Part shown: positions 2,297 to 39,158 of the stretch, one piece after another
Position numbering within the stretch: position 1 is the stretch's first letter
Layout: each line of letters starts with the position of its first letter
Assembly: GCA_011605725.1 (NCBI GenBank)
Contig: JAAOZP010000003.1
Coordinates: forward strand, 9,032-73,031
Reading direction: 5' to 3'
Length of the DNA stretch: 64,000 nucleotides
From: Nitrososphaerota archaeon
Lineage (GTDB): Archaea; Thermoproteota; EX4484-205; JAAOZP01
Notes under the pieces: model-generated
What the model was told of the DNA's origin: nothing
Database searches by the model: none
Seen by the model: the letters and a program-made list of their open reading frames with translations, nothing else
Position numbers and translations under genes: made by a program

Positions 2297-3979
2297 ATGA
2301 AGCGTCAAGCATTGTCCTTTTTATCACTGATGTTCCTGGCAATAATGATTTCCTATTTCGTTTACTCATTGTGGAGGGTTGAGCATATGAAAGAGTCACA
2401 GACTTTAATAAGAAGAATCGAATTAATGCCTTCTACTCCTGAACCGTTTGTCATGAAAAACTGGAAGGAGCTTACTAAAGCATACATCCGTTTCGTCTTC
2501 AACTTCAACCTTACCGGTGAGTACTTGCCCTTAATAAGGCTAGATAAATCTGACCCGGACGCTATTTCCTTCGACCTGCCGTCTTACATCGGCGATTCTA
2601 GGATGCGTGAAGGCTCTGGAGAAGCAATTAATTGCGTAGCAGCAGTGTTGAGTGGCACGCTTATCGGTATTAACATGAGTAACTATAATGGTTATGACTG
2701 GGTTTCAATGTGTAAAAGCTGGTTCAGTAAGGAAGACGGTATATTTCTCAATGCTAAGAGAGGGCAAAGCGGAGGGTCTTTCTGGTATGACATATATCCA
2801 AACATATTGATTTTTTCCCTAGTATACTACTATCCGGAAGCAGCGCCTTCATGGAATTCGACTCTGTATAATGCGGCTGAAAGTTTTTACAAGGCTTCCC
2901 AAATTATTCGCACACGATACAATGATTCAGATTTTGACTTCACCGCGTTCGATTTCCGCGGAATGATACCCGTTAATAACGGAAGATGGGTGGAACCGGA
3001 TGCAGCGGCAGGAATCGCATGGCTGGAGTACATGGCTTACGTGAAATGGGGCAATCCGCGTTTTCTGGATGCTGCGAAGTGGAACATGCAGTTCCTCCAA
3101 GAGAGGAAAATTAATCCTTTCTACGAAGTGTTGCTTCCCTTCGGAGCCTATACTGCTGCACGCATGAATGCAGAGCTCAGAACAAACTACGATGTGCAAA
3201 AGCTTTTGAACTGGTGTTTTGACGGCGAGACCCCGATAGGCCCAAGACCCGGATGGGGTGTTATAGTCGGCAAGTGGGGTGATTACGATGTCAATGGATT
3301 AGTAGGTAGTCTTACAGACGGCGGCGGTTATGCTTTTGCAATGAATACCTTCGACATGGCTCTGCCACTGGTACCCCTAGTACGTTACAACACTAGTTTC
3401 GCCAAGGATATAGGCAAGTGGCTGCTTAATGCTGCGAACAATGCTCGATTGTTTTATCCGGATTCACTCCCGGAAAGCCATCAATCCTCCTCATCATGGA
3501 GATATAGCAACGTTGTTGCGTATGAAGGATTGCGATACATATGGAATGGGAAGAGTCCCTACGCGATGGGTGACCCCATTCTCCATGGCTGGGGCGCTAC
3601 TGACCTGGGTCTTTACGGGTCTTCCCATGTGGGAGTGTTCGGCGGAATCATTAGTCTTACTGATGATGAGAAAATACTTCAAATAGACCTCCTTAAAACA
3701 GATATGTATCACGGTCCTGCTTACCCAACATACCTTTATTATAATCCTTATGATGTTGAGAAAAGTGTAAAGATAGAAGTTGGTTCTGAGCCGGTGGACA
3801 TTTACTGCGCTGTTACACATAGGTTTTTAGGAAGGAGTGTAACAGGCACTGGGGTGATTACGCTTCCGCCGGACTCGGCTGCAGTGATTATACTAGTGCC
3901 GTCTGGGGGTCAGGTTGAATATTCTAACGGAAGAATGCTTGTGAACGGGATCATCGTAGACTATGAATGTGAAAGTTAA
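2297..3979 (+). CDS. Membrane-anchored hypothetical protein, likely extracytoplasmic, function unknown (possibly glycan-active).
   Basis: 560-aa ORF. N-terminal hydrophobic anchor LSFLSLMFLAIMISYFVYSLW followed by a large soluble domain rich in W/Y/G. No diagnostic catalytic motif recognised. Confidence 0.45.
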   Translation: MKRQALSFLSLMFLAIMISYFVYSLWRVEHMKESQTLIRRIELMPSTPEPFVMKNWKELTKAYIRFVFNFNLTGEYLPLIRLDKSDPDAISFDLPSYIGDSRMREGSGEAINCVAAVLSGTLIGINMSNYNGYDWVSMCKSWFSKEDGIFLNAKRGQSGGSFWYDIYPNILIFSLVYYYPEAAPSWNSTLYNAAESFYKASQIIRTRYNDSDFDFTAFDFRGMIPVNNGRWVEPDAAAGIAWLEYMAYVKWGNPRFLDAAKWNMQFLQERKINPFYEVLLPFGAYTAARMNAELRTNYDVQKLLNWCFDGETPIGPRPGWGVIVGKWGDYDVNGLVGSLTDGGGYAFAMNTFDMALPLVPLVRYNTSFAKDIGKWLLNAANNARLFYPDSLPESHQSSSSWRYSNVVAYEGLRYIWNGKSPYAMGDPILHGWGATDLGLYGSSHVGVFGGIISLTDDEKILQIDLLKTDMYHGPAYPTYLYYNPYDVEKSVKIEVGSEPVDIYCAVTHRFLGRSVTGTGVITLPPDSAAVIILVPSGGQVEYSNGRMLVNGIIVDYECES

Positions 3980-4027: not shown

Positions 4028-5335
4028 TTGCCAAAACAGATCAGGTTCGACGAGAAAGATAAAGTTATTCTCTCGATCCTGTATGAAGACGCTCGCCTTA
4101 AAAACAGGCAGATCGCTTTAAAAACCAATCTTAGCCAAGCCACTGTCGCCAGAAGAATCAATAAAATGAAAAAAATGCAGATTATAAAAAGGGTTGTTCC
4201 CATAATTGATTATAAAAAAATAGGCAAGACTTCTGCATGCTTCATCCTGCTCGATTTAAAGAACTGCGATGCCGACAGCTTGATGAAATACTTGGAAAAT
4301 GCTGAGGAAGTAATATGTTTGTACCTTCTTGAAGGAGAAAAAATGCTTTTAAAAACTGTTTTTGAAAACAGATCGGCTTTAAATAATTTTGTCGACAAGA
4401 TTAAAAGGTTTTTCGGAAGCAACATCGACAGTCTTTACGAGGTCAGATCCATCCTGATTGAGGAGAAATGTCCCTTCCAAGGCGTTTCAGAGTTGAGGGC
4501 TGAAACTCATTATGAGGATCAGTCGAAAATAACGCTAAGCAACAGTAGGATTAGGCTCACTGTAGATTTAGGCAAGGGTGGAATAATAGACGAAATAGTT
4601 CCCACGAACATGAGTAGCATAAACCTGGCTTTTCCCGAGCTTGGCCTGCTTTTCGACACTTTTATAGAAACCCAGTTTTGGCTGGACGAGCTTCAAATAA
4701 CTAAGCCCTACTACAATATAAAAAGGGATGAGAACTGGATGGAGCTAAACTTCAGAAAATCAGTTAAAGCGATTTCTGCGTTAAGAGGTTTAGAGATAAC
4801 TAAGACAATTCGTTTAGAAAAAAACTTGAACGAGGCTAAGATCAAGTATTTACTGGTCAATAATGGTGGAGCTGAAAAAACATTGACGCTTTGGGTTTGC
4901 AACTATCTTGACGCCTCACTATTCTCAGAGCTGATAATCCCGTCGGCTGACGGCGTTAAAAAAATAAAGGTTGTGAACGATTCGAGCAGAGGCTTTTTCA
5001 CAGTTTCGGAGAAAGAGCTGAATGAGCTGGTGGGGAAATACTGGCGGGATGAATGGGGCTTATTCGTCCACCCCGAGAAGCCTGTAGATAGAGCTGGCTA
5101 TTTCAGTAAGCTTTTAAAAATCATCCTAATGTTTCACTTCGACCCGAAGCAAGTGTGGGTTGTTAAGAGGTTTTGGGGAGAGAAATACGTTAGTCTAGAA
5201 CTACTGTTCAACCCAGCCTCCATGCGGCCGGGGGAGACTGCTCAATACGAATTCAACATCCGCTTGTTATCAAGCAGAAAAGACTATTCTGATGAGTTTC
5301 ACGGTAATTTGTTTCATTTTTCCCCGGATATTTGA
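4028..5335 (+). CDS. Lrp/AsnC-family transcriptional regulator (HTH plus RAM domain) fused to a ~285-aa C-terminal domain of unknown function.
   Basis: The N-terminus (DEKDKVILSILYEDARLKNRQIALKTNLSQATVARRINKM…) is a typical Lrp/AsnC HTH. Residues ~60-150 resemble the RAM/ACT-like ligand domain. The long C-terminal extension has no recognised motif. TTG start in the track. Confidence 0.55.
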   Translation: MPKQIRFDEKDKVILSILYEDARLKNRQIALKTNLSQATVARRINKMKKMQIIKRVVPIIDYKKIGKTSACFILLDLKNCDADSLMKYLENAEEVICLYLLEGEKMLLKTVFENRSALNNFVDKIKRFFGSNIDSLYEVRSILIEEKCPFQGVSELRAETHYEDQSKITLSNSRIRLTVDLGKGGIIDEIVPTNMSSINLAFPELGLLFDTFIETQFWLDELQITKPYYNIKRDENWMELNFRKSVKAISALRGLEITKTIRLEKNLNEAKIKYLLVNNGGAEKTLTLWVCNYLDASLFSELIIPSADGVKKIKVVNDSSRGFFTVSEKELNELVGKYWRDEWGLFVHPEKPVDRAGYFSKLLKIILMFHFDPKQVWVVKRFWGEKYVSLELLFNPASMRPGETAQYEFNIRLLSSRKDYSDEFHGNLFHFSPDI

Positions 5336-5351
5336 CACATTTTTTCCTTAA

Positions 5352-7427
5352 TTGAAAAAACTTAAAAAAACATCAAAAGTATTAACAACGGTAAAAATGA
5401 GCCAGGAAGCTGGCGTACAAACGTATGAGGAAGGGGGGGCAAAAACTGTTCTAGCAAAATTCCCGTTACGTGCCTTCATAATAGGCCTTATACTGGCAGT
5501 GATTTCGACCATGCTCTGGGTTGCGCATACTCGTGCCAACTTGACCTACAATATACCTTGGGCAGGCTTAGCTGCAGGAGGAATAGACTTCACACTGTTC
5601 ATAGGATACGGTTTCGCTTCCCTAATAGTTCTACCAATCATCCTGTCTAAAATCGGCGTAAAACTTACTCCTACGGAATACGCTATCATATACATAATGG
5701 TTCTAATCGGATGGACTGGGCCTGCTCTTTTCTGGATGTGGGGCGTCCAAATATGGACTGTCTGGACATGGAGCGGAGGAGTCGTGGCAAAAGAACTTGC
5801 ATTAACCGGGAAAATACCTGCCTACTGGTATGTTTTGAACGAGAAACAGGCAGAATGGTTCTTCTCAGGCGGGCCTTTCATATTGAGCGAAATCTCTAGT
5901 CCAATACTCTTCTGGAGCGTAATGGCCATATGTGAAGGACTCATGACGTTCTTCCTAGCTCTGATCTTCAGAAGGAAATGGGTTGAAACCGAAAGCCTAC
6001 CTTTCCCATTCGCCTCCTCAGCAGTAATGCTGGTAAACATGACTGAAGAAGCTCAAGACAAGCCCGGTATTAAAATGGCGAGAGAAAGGCTACTCTGGAT
6101 CGCGTTCCTAATCGCAGTGCTGGCTTACGGGTTCAACATAATACATGCTTTCATTCCAACAATACCGCGGATTCCAATAGATGAAATCGATCTGAATCCT
6201 TGGGGTGGGGGGAACATTGGAGTCAACCTGGATTTAACACCGACGTTTAAAGGCGCGATGATCGTTCTAAACTTCAATCCTCTGCTTATAGCAGCATTAT
6301 TCCTCCTGCCGCTCGACATCCTGTTAACCACGTGGGTAGCAATGGTTGTGTTTCAATGGATATGGCCTGCCGTCGGGATCTCTACAGGCTTGTTCCCAGA
6401 TATCTCGGCGCAAGGCGCTTGGAGCGTATGGTGGGCACTTGGAAACGAATGGTCCGGAGCAATCTGGTATTTACTTGGATATGGCTTTATACAGGGAGTG
6501 GCAATATGGGTGATAATATCGAGTCGAAAATACTTTTCCAGCCTAATCTCCTCAGCCATCAAGGGAGACGCTGAATCCCGCATCGGCCTCTTCGGCTTCA
6601 TAGGCATAACCGTGATATGGCTACTCATCATGTTTGCGCAAGGCGCTAATCCATTGGTTATAACACTTTCAGTAGTCTATTTCCTCCTCGTCTACTTGGG
6701 AATGATGAGGTACCGTACGGAGTCTTCCCCCGCCGGCGGCGGCTTCTGGTGGTGGAACTGGACTAACGGAGTCTTCTCAAAAATAGGTAACTGGCCGATA
6801 GGATCGCCTGAAGCATATGTAACAATGAACCTAACGTCTCCAATGGGTGCAGGCCCAGGCAATATACAGTATGCACTATTATCAACAGATATTGTGCATA
6901 TTTCATCACAGTTCAAGATGGATGTCAAACACCTGTGTTTAATCGTTGTCTTAACCACAGTGATCACCGTGATTTTCGGAGGCATATTCTATGCCTGGTG
7001 GGGCTACGCTGGTTTAAGAGGCCTCGGATGGCTTAACGACCAGCAAACCTTCGCGATAGACCTTGGGTATGCGATTTATAAGAGTGGAACATCGTTCAAA
7101 CTAACTGTCTGGGAGCCAACATACATTCCTTACATTGCTGGAGTCGTCTTGGCGGTGATACTCATGTGGCTTAAAGCGACTTTCGCAACAATCCCGTTCA
7201 ACCCGTTAGGTTTAATAATGGGCTGCATGTACATGTGGCCATGGGTTTTCACGTCAGTGCTGATAGCTTGGCTGGCAAAGTACATAATCTTCAAAACAGG
7301 AGGAACCCCATTATACCAGAGGCTTCTCCCCGGTGCAATAGGTTTCATAGGTGGTTATTGGTTTGTGAAACTAGTCATGTGGTTCATAGTCCGCCTCTTC
7401 ATAGGATTACAGCTACCGCCCCCATAG
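5352..7427 (+). CDS. Polytopic integral membrane protein (more than 12 predicted TM segments), first gene of the membrane operon.
   Basis: 691 aa. Many hydrophobic W/F/G-rich helices (e.g. GGGFWWWNWTNG). The next gene starts 56 bp downstream on the same strand. Confidence 0.5.
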   Translation: MKKLKKTSKVLTTVKMSQEAGVQTYEEGGAKTVLAKFPLRAFIIGLILAVISTMLWVAHTRANLTYNIPWAGLAAGGIDFTLFIGYGFASLIVLPIILSKIGVKLTPTEYAIIYIMVLIGWTGPALFWMWGVQIWTVWTWSGGVVAKELALTGKIPAYWYVLNEKQAEWFFSGGPFILSEISSPILFWSVMAICEGLMTFFLALIFRRKWVETESLPFPFASSAVMLVNMTEEAQDKPGIKMARERLLWIAFLIAVLAYGFNIIHAFIPTIPRIPIDEIDLNPWGGGNIGVNLDLTPTFKGAMIVLNFNPLLIAALFLLPLDILLTTWVAMVVFQWIWPAVGISTGLFPDISAQGAWSVWWALGNEWSGAIWYLLGYGFIQGVAIWVIISSRKYFSSLISSAIKGDAESRIGLFGFIGITVIWLLIMFAQGANPLVITLSVVYFLLVYLGMMRYRTESSPAGGGFWWWNWTNGVFSKIGNWPIGSPEAYVTMNLTSPMGAGPGNIQYALLSTDIVHISSQFKMDVKHLCLIVVLTTVITVIFGGIFYAWWGYAGLRGLGWLNDQQTFAIDLGYAIYKSGTSFKLTVWEPTYIPYIAGVVLAVILMWLKATFATIPFNPLGLIMGCMYMWPWVFTSVLIAWLAKYIIFKTGGTPLYQRLLPGAIGFIGGYWFVKLVMWFIVRLFIGLQLPPP

Positions 7428-23760: not shown

Positions 23761-24450
23761 CTAGATCTTTGAAAGAATGTTTGAATATTTCTCCATCCTC
23801 ATAACTTTCCCCTCGGGCTGTATAAGCCAGGTCATCCAGCAGAGCTCTATCGGCCTGTATCCGCATGCTAATGCAACCTTCTCGGCTTCCCTGATGAACT
23901 CCATGTCTTTCTCCACGGGTTTTAAGCCGGCTTTAACCAGAATCCTGTTAACCACTCTTTTAACAATCTTATCCGGCATGACTGTGTCAATGCCTCCCAT
24001 CATTCTCAAGTATTGGAAGGTTATTAAGCCAACACCTTTAATTCTCCCGACCGGGTCCCTCCTCCAGTTTTCAAGACTAGCTTTCCCAGCCCAGGTTCTA
24101 AGAGCCTCCCTATCATTATTGCTCAATGTTGAAAGATAGGAGGCAATCTTCCTAGCAACACTCCAAGACCTTTTATTCCTCCATACTGTCCTCAGCCTCC
24201 TCACATCAGCCCCGGCAAGGTCTTTCAAACTCCTTATCTCACCGTTTTCAACAAACCTCTTGTTGAACTCCTCAACCTTAGGGACGACTGCAGTGAAATA
24301 GTTTAAGCCTATTGAGGTGAAGGCAGCGTCAACAATCATCAGGACAACACTCCCACCCCACCTCTCAGTCTTAAGACACCTGTCGCAATGCTCCTTAAGA
24401 CCCGGAACACTCCGCATATAACTGTCAACCACTTCCTTCAACGAAAGCAT
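23761..24450 (-). CDS. Helix-hairpin-helix DNA glycosylase-like protein, possibly an archaeal AGOG/Ogg-type N-glycosylase/DNA lyase.
   Basis: HhH-like element IKGVGLITFQYLRMMGGIDTVMPDKIVKRV in a 229-aa protein. The subfamily cannot be fixed by eye. Confidence 0.4.
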   Translation of the reverse strand: MLSLKEVVDSYMRSVPGLKEHCDRCLKTERWGGSVVLMIVDAAFTSIGLNYFTAVVPKVEEFNKRFVENGEIRSLKDLAGADVRRLRTVWRNKRSWSVARKIASYLSTLSNNDREALRTWAGKASLENWRRDPVGRIKGVGLITFQYLRMMGGIDTVMPDKIVKRVVNRILVKAGLKPVEKDMEFIREAEKVALACGYRPIELCWMTWLIQPEGKVMRMEKYSNILSKI

Positions 24451-26988: not shown

Positions 26989-28269
26989 TTATTCTCTGCG
27001 CGTAATCAACCACTTCCATAGTGGAGTGAATTTAATTTTTTCATTTTCAATTTCTAATTCATCATCATAACCCCAAGTTATTACGAGTAAATCTTTGCAT
27101 CTGAGTTCTACACAAGCCTTAAGCAACGCCCTTATCTTGCGTCTCTCGATTTCATCTCTACCATTAGCATAAGTAACCTGGATGAGTTGTTTAATTTTTG
27201 GGCCCTCCTTCAAGACGAAATCCACCTCATTTTGTTGACGATCCTTCCAGTAAAAGATTTCAAGCAAAGGATTATCATTTATCTTCCTCATCTCTTCTAT
27301 GAATACGGTGTTCTCCATCAGCCTTCCAAAATCCTCTGAAAACCGGACTACCTTTGAAATCCCCGTATCGCATATGTAAACCTTCCTTGGCCAAGATTCC
27401 CTCAGGGAGATTTTTTCCGAGTATTTTTTAACAAAGAAAACGGCCAGCGTATCCTGCAATTTTTCAACGTAATCGTAGACGGTGTTTTTACCCATTCTTA
27501 TACCGTTCGACTTAAGCAGGTTTACAAGCCTATTTACGCTAAACTCGTGCGAGAAACTTTGAAGTACTTGAGAAAAAACGAACTTTGCCACTTCAACGCT
27601 TTTAAGTTCATGTCTTTCTACAAAGTCTTTAAAGAAAATCATGTCCTGATACTCCTTCAAAATCTTCTCCTTATCCTCCTTCAACACGATTTCCGGAAAG
27701 CTGCCGAATTCAAGGAATTCTCTCAACAAGTTCCTTATTTTTGCTTTCTCCAGCCCGCTTAGGACTTCCTCCAACTCAACTCCTTTGGCTTTTAGAAATT
27801 CTCTGAACGAAAAGCCGAACAAAAGATAGGTTAAAGACCTCCCCCTCAGTTGAGTAGCCACTTCCCTGCTTAAGAGCTTGGAGGAGGAACCAGTAGCAAA
27901 AATTCTATAACCCCCTCTATTCAAGAGGGTTCTTACCATGGTTTCCCATTTCTCTACCCTTTGAACCTCGTCTAGAAAGATATCCGTTGGAACCCTGCCA
28001 GTTGTTTCGGTGAAGAGGTTTATCACATCCAGCACCTCATCAAACTTAACGTCTATCAAAGCGGAGTCTTCAAAATCTAGGTAGAGACAGCTTTCCTTAT
28101 TCCCCCTCATCAGCTGGTAGAAATAGAAGGTTTTACCAGCCCTCCGAGGCCCTACTATTGAAATAACTTTGTCTTTTACCGGCTTTACGGAGAGCTCTCT
28201 TTCCACTAGGGGTGGGAGATTTTTCGTGTACCAGTCTTCGATGTAGCTTCTCACCCTTGCTTCTTTCAT
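26989..28269 (-). CDS. AAA+ ATPase of the COG1373 / AAA_14 plus DUF4143 family.
   Basis: Walker A IVGPRRAGKTFYFYQL. Walker B IFLDEVQ. The C-terminal DUF4143-like region is present. Paralog of 35897..37192. Confidence 0.75.
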   Translation of the reverse strand: MKEARVRSYIEDWYTKNLPPLVERELSVKPVKDKVISIVGPRRAGKTFYFYQLMRGNKESCLYLDFEDSALIDVKFDEVLDVINLFTETTGRVPTDIFLDEVQRVEKWETMVRTLLNRGGYRIFATGSSSKLLSREVATQLRGRSLTYLLFGFSFREFLKAKGVELEEVLSGLEKAKIRNLLREFLEFGSFPEIVLKEDKEKILKEYQDMIFFKDFVERHELKSVEVAKFVFSQVLQSFSHEFSVNRLVNLLKSNGIRMGKNTVYDYVEKLQDTLAVFFVKKYSEKISLRESWPRKVYICDTGISKVVRFSEDFGRLMENTVFIEEMRKINDNPLLEIFYWKDRQQNEVDFVLKEGPKIKQLIQVTYANGRDEIERRKIRALLKACVELRCKDLLVITWGYDDELEIENEKIKFTPLWKWLITRRE

Positions 28270-35437: not shown

Positions 35438-35612
35438 TTGGGGAATGCAGTCTTTCGCCGACACTAGCCCGTATTCATCACTGCCACTATGCTTTCCCTC
35501 TCAGGTTTAAAGACCGATGAAGCTAACCCTACAATCATAGTGGGTAGGCGCGCTAAAGGTTGTTGTCAAGTGAAGAAGTGTTATCGAGGAAAAGCAGCGC
35601 GTTAGCGCGCGC

Positions 35613-35680
35613 GTTGAGACTGTAAAGCCTAGGGAGAAACTGTTAATAGTAATGAGTGAAATCATCGAGGTCATAACCTA
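35613..35680. repeat. Direct repeat copy 1: a 68-bp perfect repeat, with ~25 bp of additional flanking similarity.
   Basis: gttgagactgtaaagcctagggagaaactgttaatagtaatgagtgaaatcatcgaggtcataaccta is identical to the stretch at 37486..37553. Confidence 0.85.
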
Positions 35681-35896
35681 GAAGATTCTTCAAGCGTGCG
35701 AGGTTAGGGAGAACAGGGTTATCTGACCCTATGGGTTCGAGTTCGATGTTACCTGCTGCCTGCCGAAGGAAGCATGGGAGAGTGGAGGCTATGCGTGCTA
35801 GAGTTGAATAATCTGCTTCAAAGAGCGCGCTCTTTATGATTGAGAGCAAATCTCAGCATAGTCAATGAATATTTCCATCTTTAAAACATAGTTGGA

Positions 35897-37192
35897 TCAT
35901 GATTCGAGTAGCCATTTCCACAAGGGTAGGAACCTAATCCTCCTGCCATCATGCTTCTCCACTCCTTCATAGTCCCAAGTGATCACGGTTAGGTCGCTAC
36001 AGTCCAGCTCCTTAGAAGCCTTCACTAGCGCGCTTATTTCCCTCTCCTTCGTATCGAAATCCTCTATATTGTAGCATACTTGTATTAATTGCTTAATCTT
36101 TCCACCGCTCTTTATAATGAAGTCCACCTCCTTATTATTGGAGCTGAAATAGAACAAGTTTTCGTTTGGAGTGAAACCTTTCTTCAAGAGTTCTGAGAAA
36201 ACCAGGTTCTCCATAAGCCTGCTCGTGCTTTCAACTCCATTGACGATGAGCAGGCCATTATCCACCAAGTATATCTTTGGAATAGTCTGCTCCACTTCCT
36301 TATAGGACCTAGAATACTTCCTTAAAGTGCATAAAACTAACGAGTCTGAAAAATACTCAACATAGTTGTAAAGAGTGTTCTTACTAACCTTCATCCCCAA
36401 GGATTTAATATAGTTATAAAACTTATGGATTGAAAAATACGTGGACGACACTAAACTCTTAACCATTAATCTAAGGACTCTTATGTTCTTAACCTTGAAC
36501 CTCTCTATTATGTCCCTATAGATAGTAACCTCAAATATTTCCTTCAAGATCTTTTCCCTTTCATTTTCGAATAGTACTACTTCAGGATAGCTTCCCCTCA
36601 TGTATTTCTGAAGGAGATTCAGAAGCATAGCTTTCTTTAAAGAGGAAAGATATTTTTCCGCTTCGAAGCCCTTTGCTCTCAAGAACTCTTTGAAGTTAAA
36701 AGGATAAATGTAGTAGGGAAGAGTCCTTCCCCTTAGACTTGTCGCGACCTCCATGGATAGAAGCTTGGAGGAAGACCCGCTGACATACACTTGAATTCTC
36801 TCGCTATCTACAACGCTGCGCACAAACCTTTCCCAATAAGGGACGTTCTGAACCTCGTCTAGGAAAAGGTAAACCTTTTGCCTCTTATTTTCGGGGTAAA
36901 TCTCGTAAAAAATATTGAGCATGCTCCTTAAATCCTCTATGGTGCAGCCGATTAGCAAGTCGCTTTCAAGGTTAACGTAAAGTATTCTGCTTTTATCAAT
37001 ATTGTTACGCAGTAATTCCCCTATAACCTGAAACATGAAGAACGTTTTACCTGCTCTCCTCGGCCCAATTATAGATATGGCTCTTCTTATCGGAAGATCA
37101 GCTTCAATCCTAAGGTCTCTTTTCACAAGTTTAGGTAACTCGGATTCTTGGAAATCTTTTATCATTCTTATCCAGGTCTCTCGCGTTACCAT
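35897..37192 (-). CDS. AAA+ ATPase of the COG1373 / AAA_14 plus DUF4143 family, paralog of 26989..28269.
   Basis: Walker A IIGPRRAGKTFFMFQV. Walker B LFLDEVQ. Shares its C-terminal region with the paralog (…KQLIQV…ITW.Y…PLWKWL). Confidence 0.75.
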   Translation of the reverse strand: MVTRETWIRMIKDFQESELPKLVKRDLRIEADLPIRRAISIIGPRRAGKTFFMFQVIGELLRNNIDKSRILYVNLESDLLIGCTIEDLRSMLNIFYEIYPENKRQKVYLFLDEVQNVPYWERFVRSVVDSERIQVYVSGSSSKLLSMEVATSLRGRTLPYYIYPFNFKEFLRAKGFEAEKYLSSLKKAMLLNLLQKYMRGSYPEVVLFENEREKILKEIFEVTIYRDIIERFKVKNIRVLRLMVKSLVSSTYFSIHKFYNYIKSLGMKVSKNTLYNYVEYFSDSLVLCTLRKYSRSYKEVEQTIPKIYLVDNGLLIVNGVESTSRLMENLVFSELLKKGFTPNENLFYFSSNNKEVDFIIKSGGKIKQLIQVCYNIEDFDTKEREISALVKASKELDCSDLTVITWDYEGVEKHDGRRIRFLPLWKWLLES

Positions 37193-37485
37193 CGTATCAT
37201 GTATAGGGAAACTAATTTAAAAAGTTTCCCTCTTTAGAGAACCATCCCATCTATCTCGACGAATCATTCACATATGCCGTCTGAGTGCTTTATTAAATTA
37301 AGTCCTCTGTTTTATGCGTCTTAAGAATCCGTAATTGTTGTACTTCTAGCGCGCTAGTATCCTTCTGGGAGAATTTCCTTCACCCTATCTATGTTCCAGC
37401 CGTCTCTTTTCATCAACACAAAATCACAACCCCTTGTAGCGCGCTAAGAATCTTTAGCTCAGAGCAAGAAACATAAAAAGAAGTC

Positions 37486-37553
37486 GTTGAGACTGTAAAG
37501 CCTAGGGAGAAACTGTTAATAGTAATGAGTGAAATCATCGAGGTCATAACCTA
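37486..37553. repeat. Direct repeat copy 2, identical over 68 bp to 35613..35680.
   Basis: Same 68-mer. The downstream ~25 bp are similar with a 2-bp indel. Confidence 0.85.
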
Positions 37554-37671
37554 ACATTCTTCAAGCGCGCGAGGTTAGAATTATACTCTGCTCCGCGCTC
37601 GCTACAGGCTTTCTAGTAAATACTGCTGCATTAGGATTTCTAGCTATCATGTTCTGTTTCATATTCACCAC

Positions 37672-38210: not shown

Positions 38211-38626
38211 TTATCGCGAAATCTTAGCGAGCGCGCGCTCTTTAAGTTTTAGCTCTCCAGACTCGTCTCTCAGATTTAGCAAATCCATGTCAAAAGTAAT
38301 GATGCAACTTGCCTTAGCCTCATAGGCGACATTGAGGAACTTGTCATCATCAGGGTCTCTGCAAAGCTTAAATTCCTCTTTTGGTGCAGTCTTCAAAGCA
38401 CTTCTATAGATCTTATCCAGAATAAGATAGACTCTGGAAAAATCGATTCTATCAGAAACCTTGTTGAATTGGATGGCTTTCAAATACTCCTTAAAAAATG
38501 CTGTCTGAAAATAGCCACTATTAGTTCGCCATTAAGCACCCTGATGAGAATATCCTTCGACGCTCTGCTATCGATGAGTCCAGCTATTAATACAGAAGTA
38601 TCTAAAACTATTTTATCCTCGCCCAC
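38211..38626 (-). pseudogene. vapC: PIN-domain (VapC-like) toxin gene with a frameshift.
   Basis: The N-terminal part (GTG start ~38626) reads VGEDKIVLDTSVLIAGLIDSRASKDILIRVLNGELIVAIF… and stops. The C-terminal part continues in another frame as the 38211..38483 ORF (…DPDDDKFLNVAYEAKASCIITFDMDLL). Confidence 0.5.
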
Positions 38627-38814: not shown

Positions 38815-39158
38815 CTTCCCCTACCATTCTGAAGACCAATTCCCCTTATAAATCTATGGTTAAAAAGTAATAAAGATGTTGCTGGGGAACTTAGATAGAA
38901 TCCGGAAGAATGTTAGAGAAAACACGTTGAATAAACTCTTACCCAAGAATACCAAGAAATTTAGATTACTCGCTTTCTAGGTCGAGCAGGTCCCAGTCGG
39001 GCGCACGCTAAAATCTTCAATAAAACTAAGCGCTTTAGAGGAGCAAAAAGATTGAATAATCTACTTAAAAACTGTAAACAAACCTTATTCTATAAAACCT
39101 GCATCTCCATTAGACATATTATTAGCCATCCAAAATAGGTCCACGCGCGCTATCAAGT

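Follow-up and report, generated by a model that had tools for sequence, protein, structure and literature searches.

The stretch of DNA analysed here, a 64-kb window on contig JAAOZP010000003.1 of a Nitrososphaerota archaeon, contains a gene for an AAA_14/DUF4143 ATPase that is bracketed by two copies of a direct repeat, in the following termed R-left and R-right. The initial annotation had described an identical 68-mer on both sides of the gene. An exact search of the 64-kb window indeed finds this 68-mer twice only (35613-35680 and 37486-37553), and it had no match in any of 100 shuffled sequences. The perfect match is in fact 69 nt long. It is followed by an imperfect tail (24/26 nt), in which the 2-bp indel reported before is accompanied by two mismatches. 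Together, 69-mer and tail amount to 96 nt with 95.8% identity in the window. No similarity was found past either repeat end in the window, and blastn with short words detected no third copy in the 64 kb. For the coordinates of all features see Table 1.

Table 1. Features of the ATPase locus in window coordinates, and repeats at homologous ATPase loci
Feature	Position	Strand	Remarks
R-left	35612..35707	+	perfect 69-mer 35612-35680 and imperfect tail; reads VETVKPREKLLIVMSEIIEVIT, stop, then 3' untranslated region (UTR)
R-right	37446..37578	+	69-mer 37485-37553, tail 37554-37578, extension 37446-37484
Inserted segment between extended repeats	35708..37445	-	1738 bp
AAA_14 + DUF4143 ATPase	35897..37192	-	431 aa; PADLOC candidate defence family PDC-S01
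Minimal ATPase cassette	35880..37245	-	-53 to +17 around the open reading frame (ORF); 88% identity with L008, L019, L020 (blastn)
Palindromic promoter/operator (putative)	37206..37230	-	GGGAAACT-N9-AGTTTCCC centred on TTTAAAAA, ~37 nt before start codon
EVE-domain gene fragment (aa 74-101)	35700..35790	+	overlaps R-left end by 8 nt, GAGGTTAG
Deletion junction	35603..35612	.	window, L013, L017 lineage; 8-12 nt GC filler (AGCGCGCG) absent from undeleted allele
AGAGCGCGCTCT palindrome	35822..35833	.	3' boundary of ATPase block common to L005 and L021
CTAGCGCGCTAG palindrome	37346-37357	.	second palindrome near R-right
TAGCGCGCTA palindrome	37437..37446	.	abuts 5' boundary of extended R-right
L029 (Altarchaeum)			repeat 65 nt
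L033 (Eubacteriales)			repeat 130 nt
L037 (Micrarchaeota)			repeat 145 nt
L038 (Aminicenantales)			repeat 134 nt
L059 (Sulfurimonas plasmid)			repeat 47 nt
L025 (Methanocellales)			repeat 24 nt
L048 (Gammaproteobacteria)			repeat 20 nt
L077 ([Eubacterium] eligens (Lachnospira) plasmid)			repeat 25 nt
L045 (Woesearchaeota) repeats	3342-3417 and 3690-3892 vs 5223-5298 and 5929-6131		

A GCGCGC element had been placed in front of each copy. This holds only loosely: the left copy abuts GCGCGCGCG, but the TAGCGCGCTA of the right copy lies 41 nt upstream. Neither the GTDB representative genomes nor IMG/VR contain a 25-mer from the repeat core; the JGI metagenomes have it on five contigs, every one of which represents this locus, and the number of repeat copies per sample never exceeds two. 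A dispersed repeat was rejected on these grounds. Nor does the repeat belong to a tandem duplication comprising entire adjacent genes, which was the other circumstance raised in the initial annotation as a counterargument.

As annotated, the repeats flank one real gene, which is accompanied by a 90-nt fragment of another gene. The encoded ATPase matches the Pfam families AAA_14 (E = 1.3e-35) and DUF4143 (E = 1.7e-20) and, over its full length (residues 21-430), the PADLOC profile PDLC04787 (PDC-S01; E = 3.2e-99). Judged by these profile matches, it is a bona fide member of PDC-S01 with a candidate anti-virus function. PDC-S01 is an ATPase fused to a PD-(D/E)XK domain, and most such candidates still await validation by experiment (PMC12988326, PMC3424549). 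The family is very common, enriched in Archaea, and reported to be the fourth most common (candidate) defence across prokaryotes. A search for a solved structure of the ATPase returned spurious P-loop matches to RecA only, and no viral contigs encoding it were found. The paralogous ATPase gene in the window (26989-28269, minus strand, 426 aa) had been said to lack such repeats, and we found no flanking repeat there either.

The ATPase is the only ORF between the repeats with a family match. No recombinase is encoded between them, and the neighbouring genes code for a permease and ParE. A family search detected no transposase domain in the insert, and there is no inverted repeat that pairs its two ends. 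The gene fragment corresponds to a 270-aa protein of locus L001 (82% identity, E = 2.6e-10 by tblastn; 90% identity over 92 nt at the DNA level) that matches Pfam EVE; L001, L009 and L013 have the intact gene at a distance of a few kb. About 130 nt of the insert are without assignment and are bounded by two GCGCGC palindromes. A block wider than the minimal ATPase cassette (35830-37313) is common to the window, L005-7 and L021 according to blastn.

The origin of the repeat became apparent from strains that are 99% identical to the window. In L002, L010 and L014, R-left extends upstream into a frameshifted toxin gene located beside a DUF433 antitoxin gene. The toxin gene is distributed over three frames (KLLADENVP..., then ...SDEEVVNTANAADRTILTRDQDF...GIYILQSL with a stop codon, then ...KNLELIARNIKEVVETVKPREKLLIVMSEIIEVIT with a stop codon). 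Its joined conceptual translation matches PF18480 (DUF5615, PIN-like) with 67 bits (E = 1.6e-18) and covers profile positions 2-104 of 110. The called toxin ORF of 77 aa, which is devoid of the repeat-encoded residues, reaches 63 bits and covers positions 2-75 of 110 only; the 38-aa repeat peptide alone does not match the DUF5615 profile. The final 23 toxin codons are therefore contained in the 69-mer, and the tail provides the stop codon and the 3' UTR. What is repeated is the 3' terminus of a DUF5615 toxin gene, the partner of the DUF433 antitoxin. In every strain a frameshift or a stop interrupts the toxin ORF after 77 aa, and 23 codons are left in the window. The only protein match to the conceptual toxin among 5.8 billion database sequences is the same toxin ORF in a sister strain.

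The two copies are not equivalent. R-right contains an in-frame stop and a 1-nt insertion. Its homology to the sister-strain toxin gene includes the 39-nt extension, and no toxin homology was found further upstream of R-right in any contig seen. R-left is the native toxin end, of which the window retains a stump only, and R-right is a detached, duplicated fragment.

The same arrangement is present in L001, L002/L011, L009, L012, L013, L015-L017 and L062-L066, all from 99% identical strains, and the insertion is fixed in all sampled strains. In L002, L010 and L014 the repeat has a length of 133-135 nt with 94-95% identity between the copies, and the extra 39 nt upstream of R-left also match the sequence upstream of R-right. 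Inside the 69-mer, R-left and R-right do not differ in the window and L014, differ once in L010 and twice in L002. The strains diverge from each other by 0.3-1%, compared with ~6% between the two repeat copies, and the duplication is therefore clearly older than the strain radiation. The perfect identity of the 69-mer thus hinges on one or two bases and is no evidence of youth. The recent duplication suggested in the initial annotation is thus not supported. Rather, the perfect 69-nt core appears to be that portion of a 135-nt repeat which was preserved best, possibly by gene conversion.

The match between L010 and the window starts in the permease gene, ends at position 35603 and resumes at 35612, with 6.7 kb of extra sequence in L010 in between. 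This block contains two DNA methylases, a DpnII-like ORF, a split Mrr, DUF433 and the toxin pseudogene; the corresponding block in L002 is 3 kb long. The window reads GCAGCGCGTT-AGCGCGCG-CGTTGAGACT at this position, and the filler is absent from L010. By this comparison, the window lineage together with L013 and L017 later deleted the whole 6.7-kb block including the rest of the toxin gene, which gave rise to the sharp left edge of R-left and to the GCGCGC element before it. The strain block between the permease gene and the left repeat (window 35462-35612, L010 623-7362, L002 5352-8292) also holds a NucS_C-like gene.

Based on these comparisons we propose that the repeats are probably an old target duplication that was generated by an insertion and is now a passive scar. 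In the ancestor, a DUF433 antitoxin/DUF5615 toxin pair would have been arranged tail-to-tail with a ParE toxin pair. A segment of ~1.74 kb would then have inserted at the 3' end of the DUF5615 gene, its cargo being a self-contained ATPase cassette together with scraps of earlier neighbours, among them the 90-nt piece of the EVE gene. In this process the terminal ~135 bp of the target, a stretch of 35 codons with the stop codon and 25 nt of 3' UTR, would have come to lie on both sides of the insert, either by filling in of staggered strand breaks ~135 bp apart or by template switching back behind the departure point. One junction may have been formed via the 8-nt microhomology GAGGTTAG, and no dedicated recombinase site would be involved. 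The insertion may have been brought about by a circular donor in a single homologous crossover, by a recombinase in trans, or by an ATP-dependent nuclease of the cassette itself. The repeats would now be functionless scars and potential substrates for a homologous pop-out of the ATPase gene.

The initial annotation had considered a small mobile or excisable cassette with att-like sites. Its general idea holds insofar as the repeats bound inserted ATPase DNA, but excision and a dedicated att site are not borne out. Searches via the repeat core and via the identical ParE turned up no allele that has one repeat and no ATPase; the contigs covered number about 20 and come from more than 10 samples. 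Each of the nine contigs encoding the identical ParE enters the ATPase gene or breaks inside the repeat. This clustering of assembly breaks is explained by strain differences left of R-left in combination with k-mers shorter than the repeat. As the empty-site allele was not recovered, the pre-insertion state is inferred and not observed. With respect to an att site, there is no recombinase between the repeats, the repeat is the end of a toxin pseudogene, and it is absent from four other contexts in which close copies of the ATPase gene reside. These copies (L005-7, 94% identity; L021, 88%; L008 and L019/20, 88%) are found beside a Zip transporter, beside ribosomal protein genes, and near Csx1 and DUF1232. 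No short duplications were observed at the borders of the minimal cassette in L005, L008, L019 and L021.

These results bear directly on the possibility that the repeats are attL/attR-type sites of a small excisable cassette. In that case a circular ATPase element carrying a toxin 3' end would have integrated by a single crossover, either homologous (Campbell-type) or catalyzed by a tyrosine or serine recombinase in trans, and could pop out again. Integrase-mediated islands have their hallmark in direct repeats through which the target gene regains its 3' end, and the repeats described here likewise preserve such an end. A crossover within the 69-nt core would account for differences being confined to the outer repeat. 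Furthermore, a tyrosine or serine recombinase gene is adjacent to, or at most 2 kb away from, the ATPase homologue in 5 out of 14 plasmid loci. Many assemblies break at or near the repeats, but strain differences and short k-mers explain these breaks. Neither between nor beside the repeats is there a recombinase, the roughly 20 contigs yielded no empty site, and the repeat is locus-specific, being missing at the other contexts of the cassette. Such a crossover would also merely move the origin of the first adjacency of toxin end and ATPase gene one step back. We therefore consider att-type sites unlikely.

To see the locus in the context of its family, we examined the sequences on either side of homologous ATPase genes, which were taken from GTDB genomes and finished plasmids. 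For each gene the longest exact match between the 300 nt upstream and the 300 nt downstream was determined and counted if it comprised at least 13 nt; neighbouring genes from these loci with a product of at least 200 aa served as controls. Direct matches of this kind flank 10 of 55 ATPase genes versus 2 of 114 neighbouring genes, and inverted matches flank none of the 55 ATPase genes versus 4 of the 114 neighbours. A blastn version of the test gave 8/48 for the ATPase and 1/80 for the controls (Fisher p = 0.0017). The sole two repeat-flanked "control" genes of an earlier blastn run were further AAA_14/DUF4143 genes. The question from the initial annotation whether other DUF4143 ATPase genes have similar repeats can thus be answered: they recur around homologues in unrelated phyla. 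The flanking repeats differ in sequence from locus to locus and have lengths of 13-145 bp. About 80% of the homologous ATPase loci are without a repeat, and the insert ends are not fixed.

The repeats of the two cleanest cases are plainly target-derived. In L048 (metagenome-assembled genome (MAG), JACQPQ010000008.1) an ATPase cassette of 1407 bp is located exactly between mutL and miaA, with both genes intact. The 20-bp duplication (3853-3872 and 5280-5299) spans the mutL stop together with the start of miaA (TAATG), and there is direct overlap of these two genes in E. coli K-12. In L025 (Methanocellales MAG) the 24-bp duplication (3925-3948 and 5309-5332) repeats the end of an ABC-2 permease gene, namely its last 8 codons and stop codon. 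The L025 cassette is very compact, with 11 nt, the operator, the ORF and 9 nt. The window's 135-bp duplication of a gene 3' end belongs to the same family-wide pattern. The repeat of L038, on the other hand, is a multi-copy local element beside an IS200-like gene.

Several further searches were made at the homologous loci. Removal of the insert from L029, L033, L037, L038 and L045 restored no convincing host ORF. Remnants of an ATPase gene upstream, beside the repeats of L029, L033 and L037, did not go beyond a few codons (tblastn), and no ATPase homologue was matched in E. coli genomes, where filled and empty sites might have been compared. A cis-acting half-site in the conserved WKW-coding 3' end was rejected because synonymous positions vary freely.

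Two loci show related rearrangements. In L021 a 229-aa gene without family match, a homologue of window 23761-24450, is situated between 47-nt direct repeats with 87% identity (2888-2934 and 3876-3922). These repeats represent the ATPase promoter and the first 12 codons of the ATPase gene, which is left intact, so that this is a further case of an insertion accompanied by a long duplication of its target. The same type of repeat around this gene suggests that the process is not exclusive to the ATPase. L045 contains two tandem ATPase paralogues with 28% identity, each followed by a copy of the same 5' part of a dockerin gene (Table 1). A 3' stub of a B-type ATPase gene is located directly behind the A-type gene, and this arrangement suggests that one ATPase gene replaced another at the same site.

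Upstream of the ATPase gene we observed a conserved non-coding element. A 23-bp palindrome, GGAAAC-N11-RTTTCC, is centred on a TATA-like TTTAAAT and is found near position -37 in 22 out of 59 ATPase loci, at a nearly fixed distance from the start codon. Almost all of them belong to the close subfamily, in archaea as well as in bacteria (L005, L008, L019, L021, L024-L029, L032-L034, L036-L038 and L040-L044); the hosts are Nitrososphaerota, Methanocellales, DPANN archaea, Eubacteriales, Aminicenantales and Atribacterota. Among 122 control genes only three have this palindrome, and two of these are near-identical 437-aa ORFs where another AAA_14/DUF4143 ATPase sits. In both domains the palindrome travels with the ATPase gene, which it probably serves as an operator of its own.

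Taken as signs of autonomous movement, these features would describe the ATPase cassette as a single-gene mobile element. Its AAA+/PD-(D/E)XK protein would nick the target twice at variable spacing, and fill-in would then give rise to duplications of 13-145 bp. Target-derived repeats are enriched ~10-fold around this ATPase family across phyla. L048 and L025 possess clean duplications with intact flanking genes, and the downstream repeat begins within ~30 nt of the stop codon in six loci. The palindrome accompanies the gene in two domains, and the same minimal cassette occurs in unrelated contexts. In addition, the family is known as "embedded" in other defence operons by a mechanism that is not known. 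A self-mobile cassette is, however, difficult to reconcile with the ~80% of loci that are free of repeats, including the four contexts of the 88-94% identical copies, and with variable insert ends that have neither a conserved terminal motif nor inverted repeats. The 3' end is conserved at the protein level only, no transposase-like domain was detected, and the 229-aa gene of L021 with its repeats of the same type points to a host process. We regard self-mobility as unlikely. The broader proposal that PDC-S01 cassettes (23-bp operator plus one ORF, ~1.37 kb) are a widespread transposase-free mobile element of archaea and bacteria, and that this is the mechanism of their embedding, is a speculative one to which we assign a low likelihood.

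The copies might also be independent remnants of two paralogous DUF433/DUF5615 loci on either side of the ATPase gene, with no duplication linked to the insertion. Decaying toxin-antitoxin genes are indeed numerous in the island (ParE, several PIN genes, MazE). But the two copies, with an identity of 94-100%, share their orientation and stop at exactly the same nucleotide (GAGGTTAG); the sole database match to the toxin is the same ORF in the sister strain, and R-right is without more upstream toxin sequence in all contigs seen. This makes separate paralogous origins very improbable. A function of the 69-mer under selection, be it that of a small RNA, of a short antisense ORF (MTSMISLITINSFSLGFTVST...) or of a regulatory site, can practically be dismissed: the core is better conserved than its flanks and ATG-initiated antisense ORFs begin inside both copies, but these ORFs diverge immediately outside the repeat, no sample has more than two copies, no tRNA or Rfam family was found anywhere in the 64-kb window, and the repeat folds no better than shuffled sequences on either strand (z = +0.6 and +0.8). 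A C/D-box small RNA was discarded, as the boxes are absent when inspected by eye.

The insertion-generated target duplication, which we prefer, has to be weighed against a number of observations that do not fit it easily. The corresponding empty site (toxin, one repeat, ParE) was not recovered in assembled contigs. The 88-94% identical ATPase copies in four other contexts have neither the window repeat nor any flanking repeat. At 135 bp, the duplication is far longer than the classical duplications of transposons. The ends of the insert are "sloppy", with about 170 and 200 nt of extra sequence beyond the minimal cassette. Differences between the copies are unevenly distributed, with 0-2 in the 69-nt core and about 6 in the other 66 nt, which demands gene conversion or chance. 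Finally, the repeats of L029 and L033 contain the last 2-3 codons of the cassette itself, for which a pure target duplication is a poorer explanation than partial tandem duplication or microhomology.

GC-rich palindromes were observed at many positions of the window. TA(GC)nTA palindromes with n = 3-7 are distributed over 18857-63208 and are also present in L002 and L010 (4978-4991). For GCGCGC, 30 of 36 occurrences are outside ORFs, though only ~15% of the window is non-coding, and none is located in the first 18.8 kb. Homology between the window and related contigs breaks off at 23 points, 6 of which are within 3 nt of a TA(GC)nTA palindrome, compared with 0.6% of random positions. The motif is absent from the other species with an 88% identical ATPase copy. 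It might act as a hotspot of recombination, be a scar of junctions, form Z-DNA or mark a site upstream of promoters.

To the right of the repeats the strains also differ. L001, L002, L009, L012, L013 and L016 part from the window exactly at 39010. Beyond this point they contain a NucS-like gene, an EVE-domain gene and a type I restriction system, where the window and L015 have an N6/N4 methylase and a DUF87 ATPase. The PIN_3 ORF at 38211-38483 (90 aa) matches the C-terminal part of the profile only and has a 137-aa version in L001; it is probably a truncated toxin gene.

The locus itself is an ordinary, neat example of an old insertion scar in a fast-rearranging toxin-antitoxin/restriction island of a hot-spring Nitrososphaerota archaeon. 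It resembles integrase islands at gene 3' ends in that direct repeats bracket foreign DNA and the end of the target gene is preserved together with its stop codon. It differs from them in having no integrase in or next to the insert, no attachment sequence shared across insertions and no empty site among the contigs examined, and the insert is only 1.7 kb long with a single gene. Insertion sequences of the IS1634/IS1549 type produce long target duplications of variable length, and they encode a DDE transposase and possess terminal inverted repeats. Common to both are direct repeats that are derived from the target, measure tens to hundreds of bp and vary in length from insertion to insertion; the insert in the window, however, has neither a transposase nor terminal inverted repeats. 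In a Campbell-type integration the cargo also comes to lie between two copies of a homologous stretch, with the possibility of a later pop-out. It needs a circular donor in which the toxin end is beside the ATPase gene, but no such molecule or pop-out product was seen.

Integron cassettes share with this family the single promoter-proximal ORF, flanking repeats of 55-145 nt and, in several homologous loci, a downstream repeat starting from the stop codon. In contrast, the repeats described here are derived from host genes and lack attC-like hairpins, and no IntI was identified near the repeats, the whole window not having been screened for IntI. The window locus is not an integron cassette. 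Folds of the repeats from the window, L029, L033, L037 and L038 had z-scores of -1.4 to +1.1 without an end-to-end stem, and attC sites were rejected as an identity.

The closest correspondence is with the "embedded" defence genes of PDC-S01. The spread of this family between two domains and its siting inside other operons are so far unexplained. Payne et al. left the significance of embedding for exploration, and the searched text of that work makes no mention of direct repeats (bioRxiv 10.1101/2024.01.29.577857; PMC12988326); relative to this text, the flanking target duplications and the conserved putative operator are new. Repeats at about one fifth of the copies, two insertions that spared the flanking genes (one of them at mutL/miaA) and a fixed palindrome common to both domains provide insertion footprints that can be tested. 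Should the cassette prove to be autonomously mobile, it would represent a novel type of minimal mobile element, and the 69-mer pair of the window would be one such footprint. As in other PDC-S01 loci, the ATPase gene of the window lies inside a defence-related region, here a toxin-antitoxin/restriction-modification island, and distant homologues on plasmids of Arcobacter (L072), Treponema (L076) and Campylobacterota (L056/L059) and in L070/L074 are found between cas3 and cas4 and between hsdR and hsdM.

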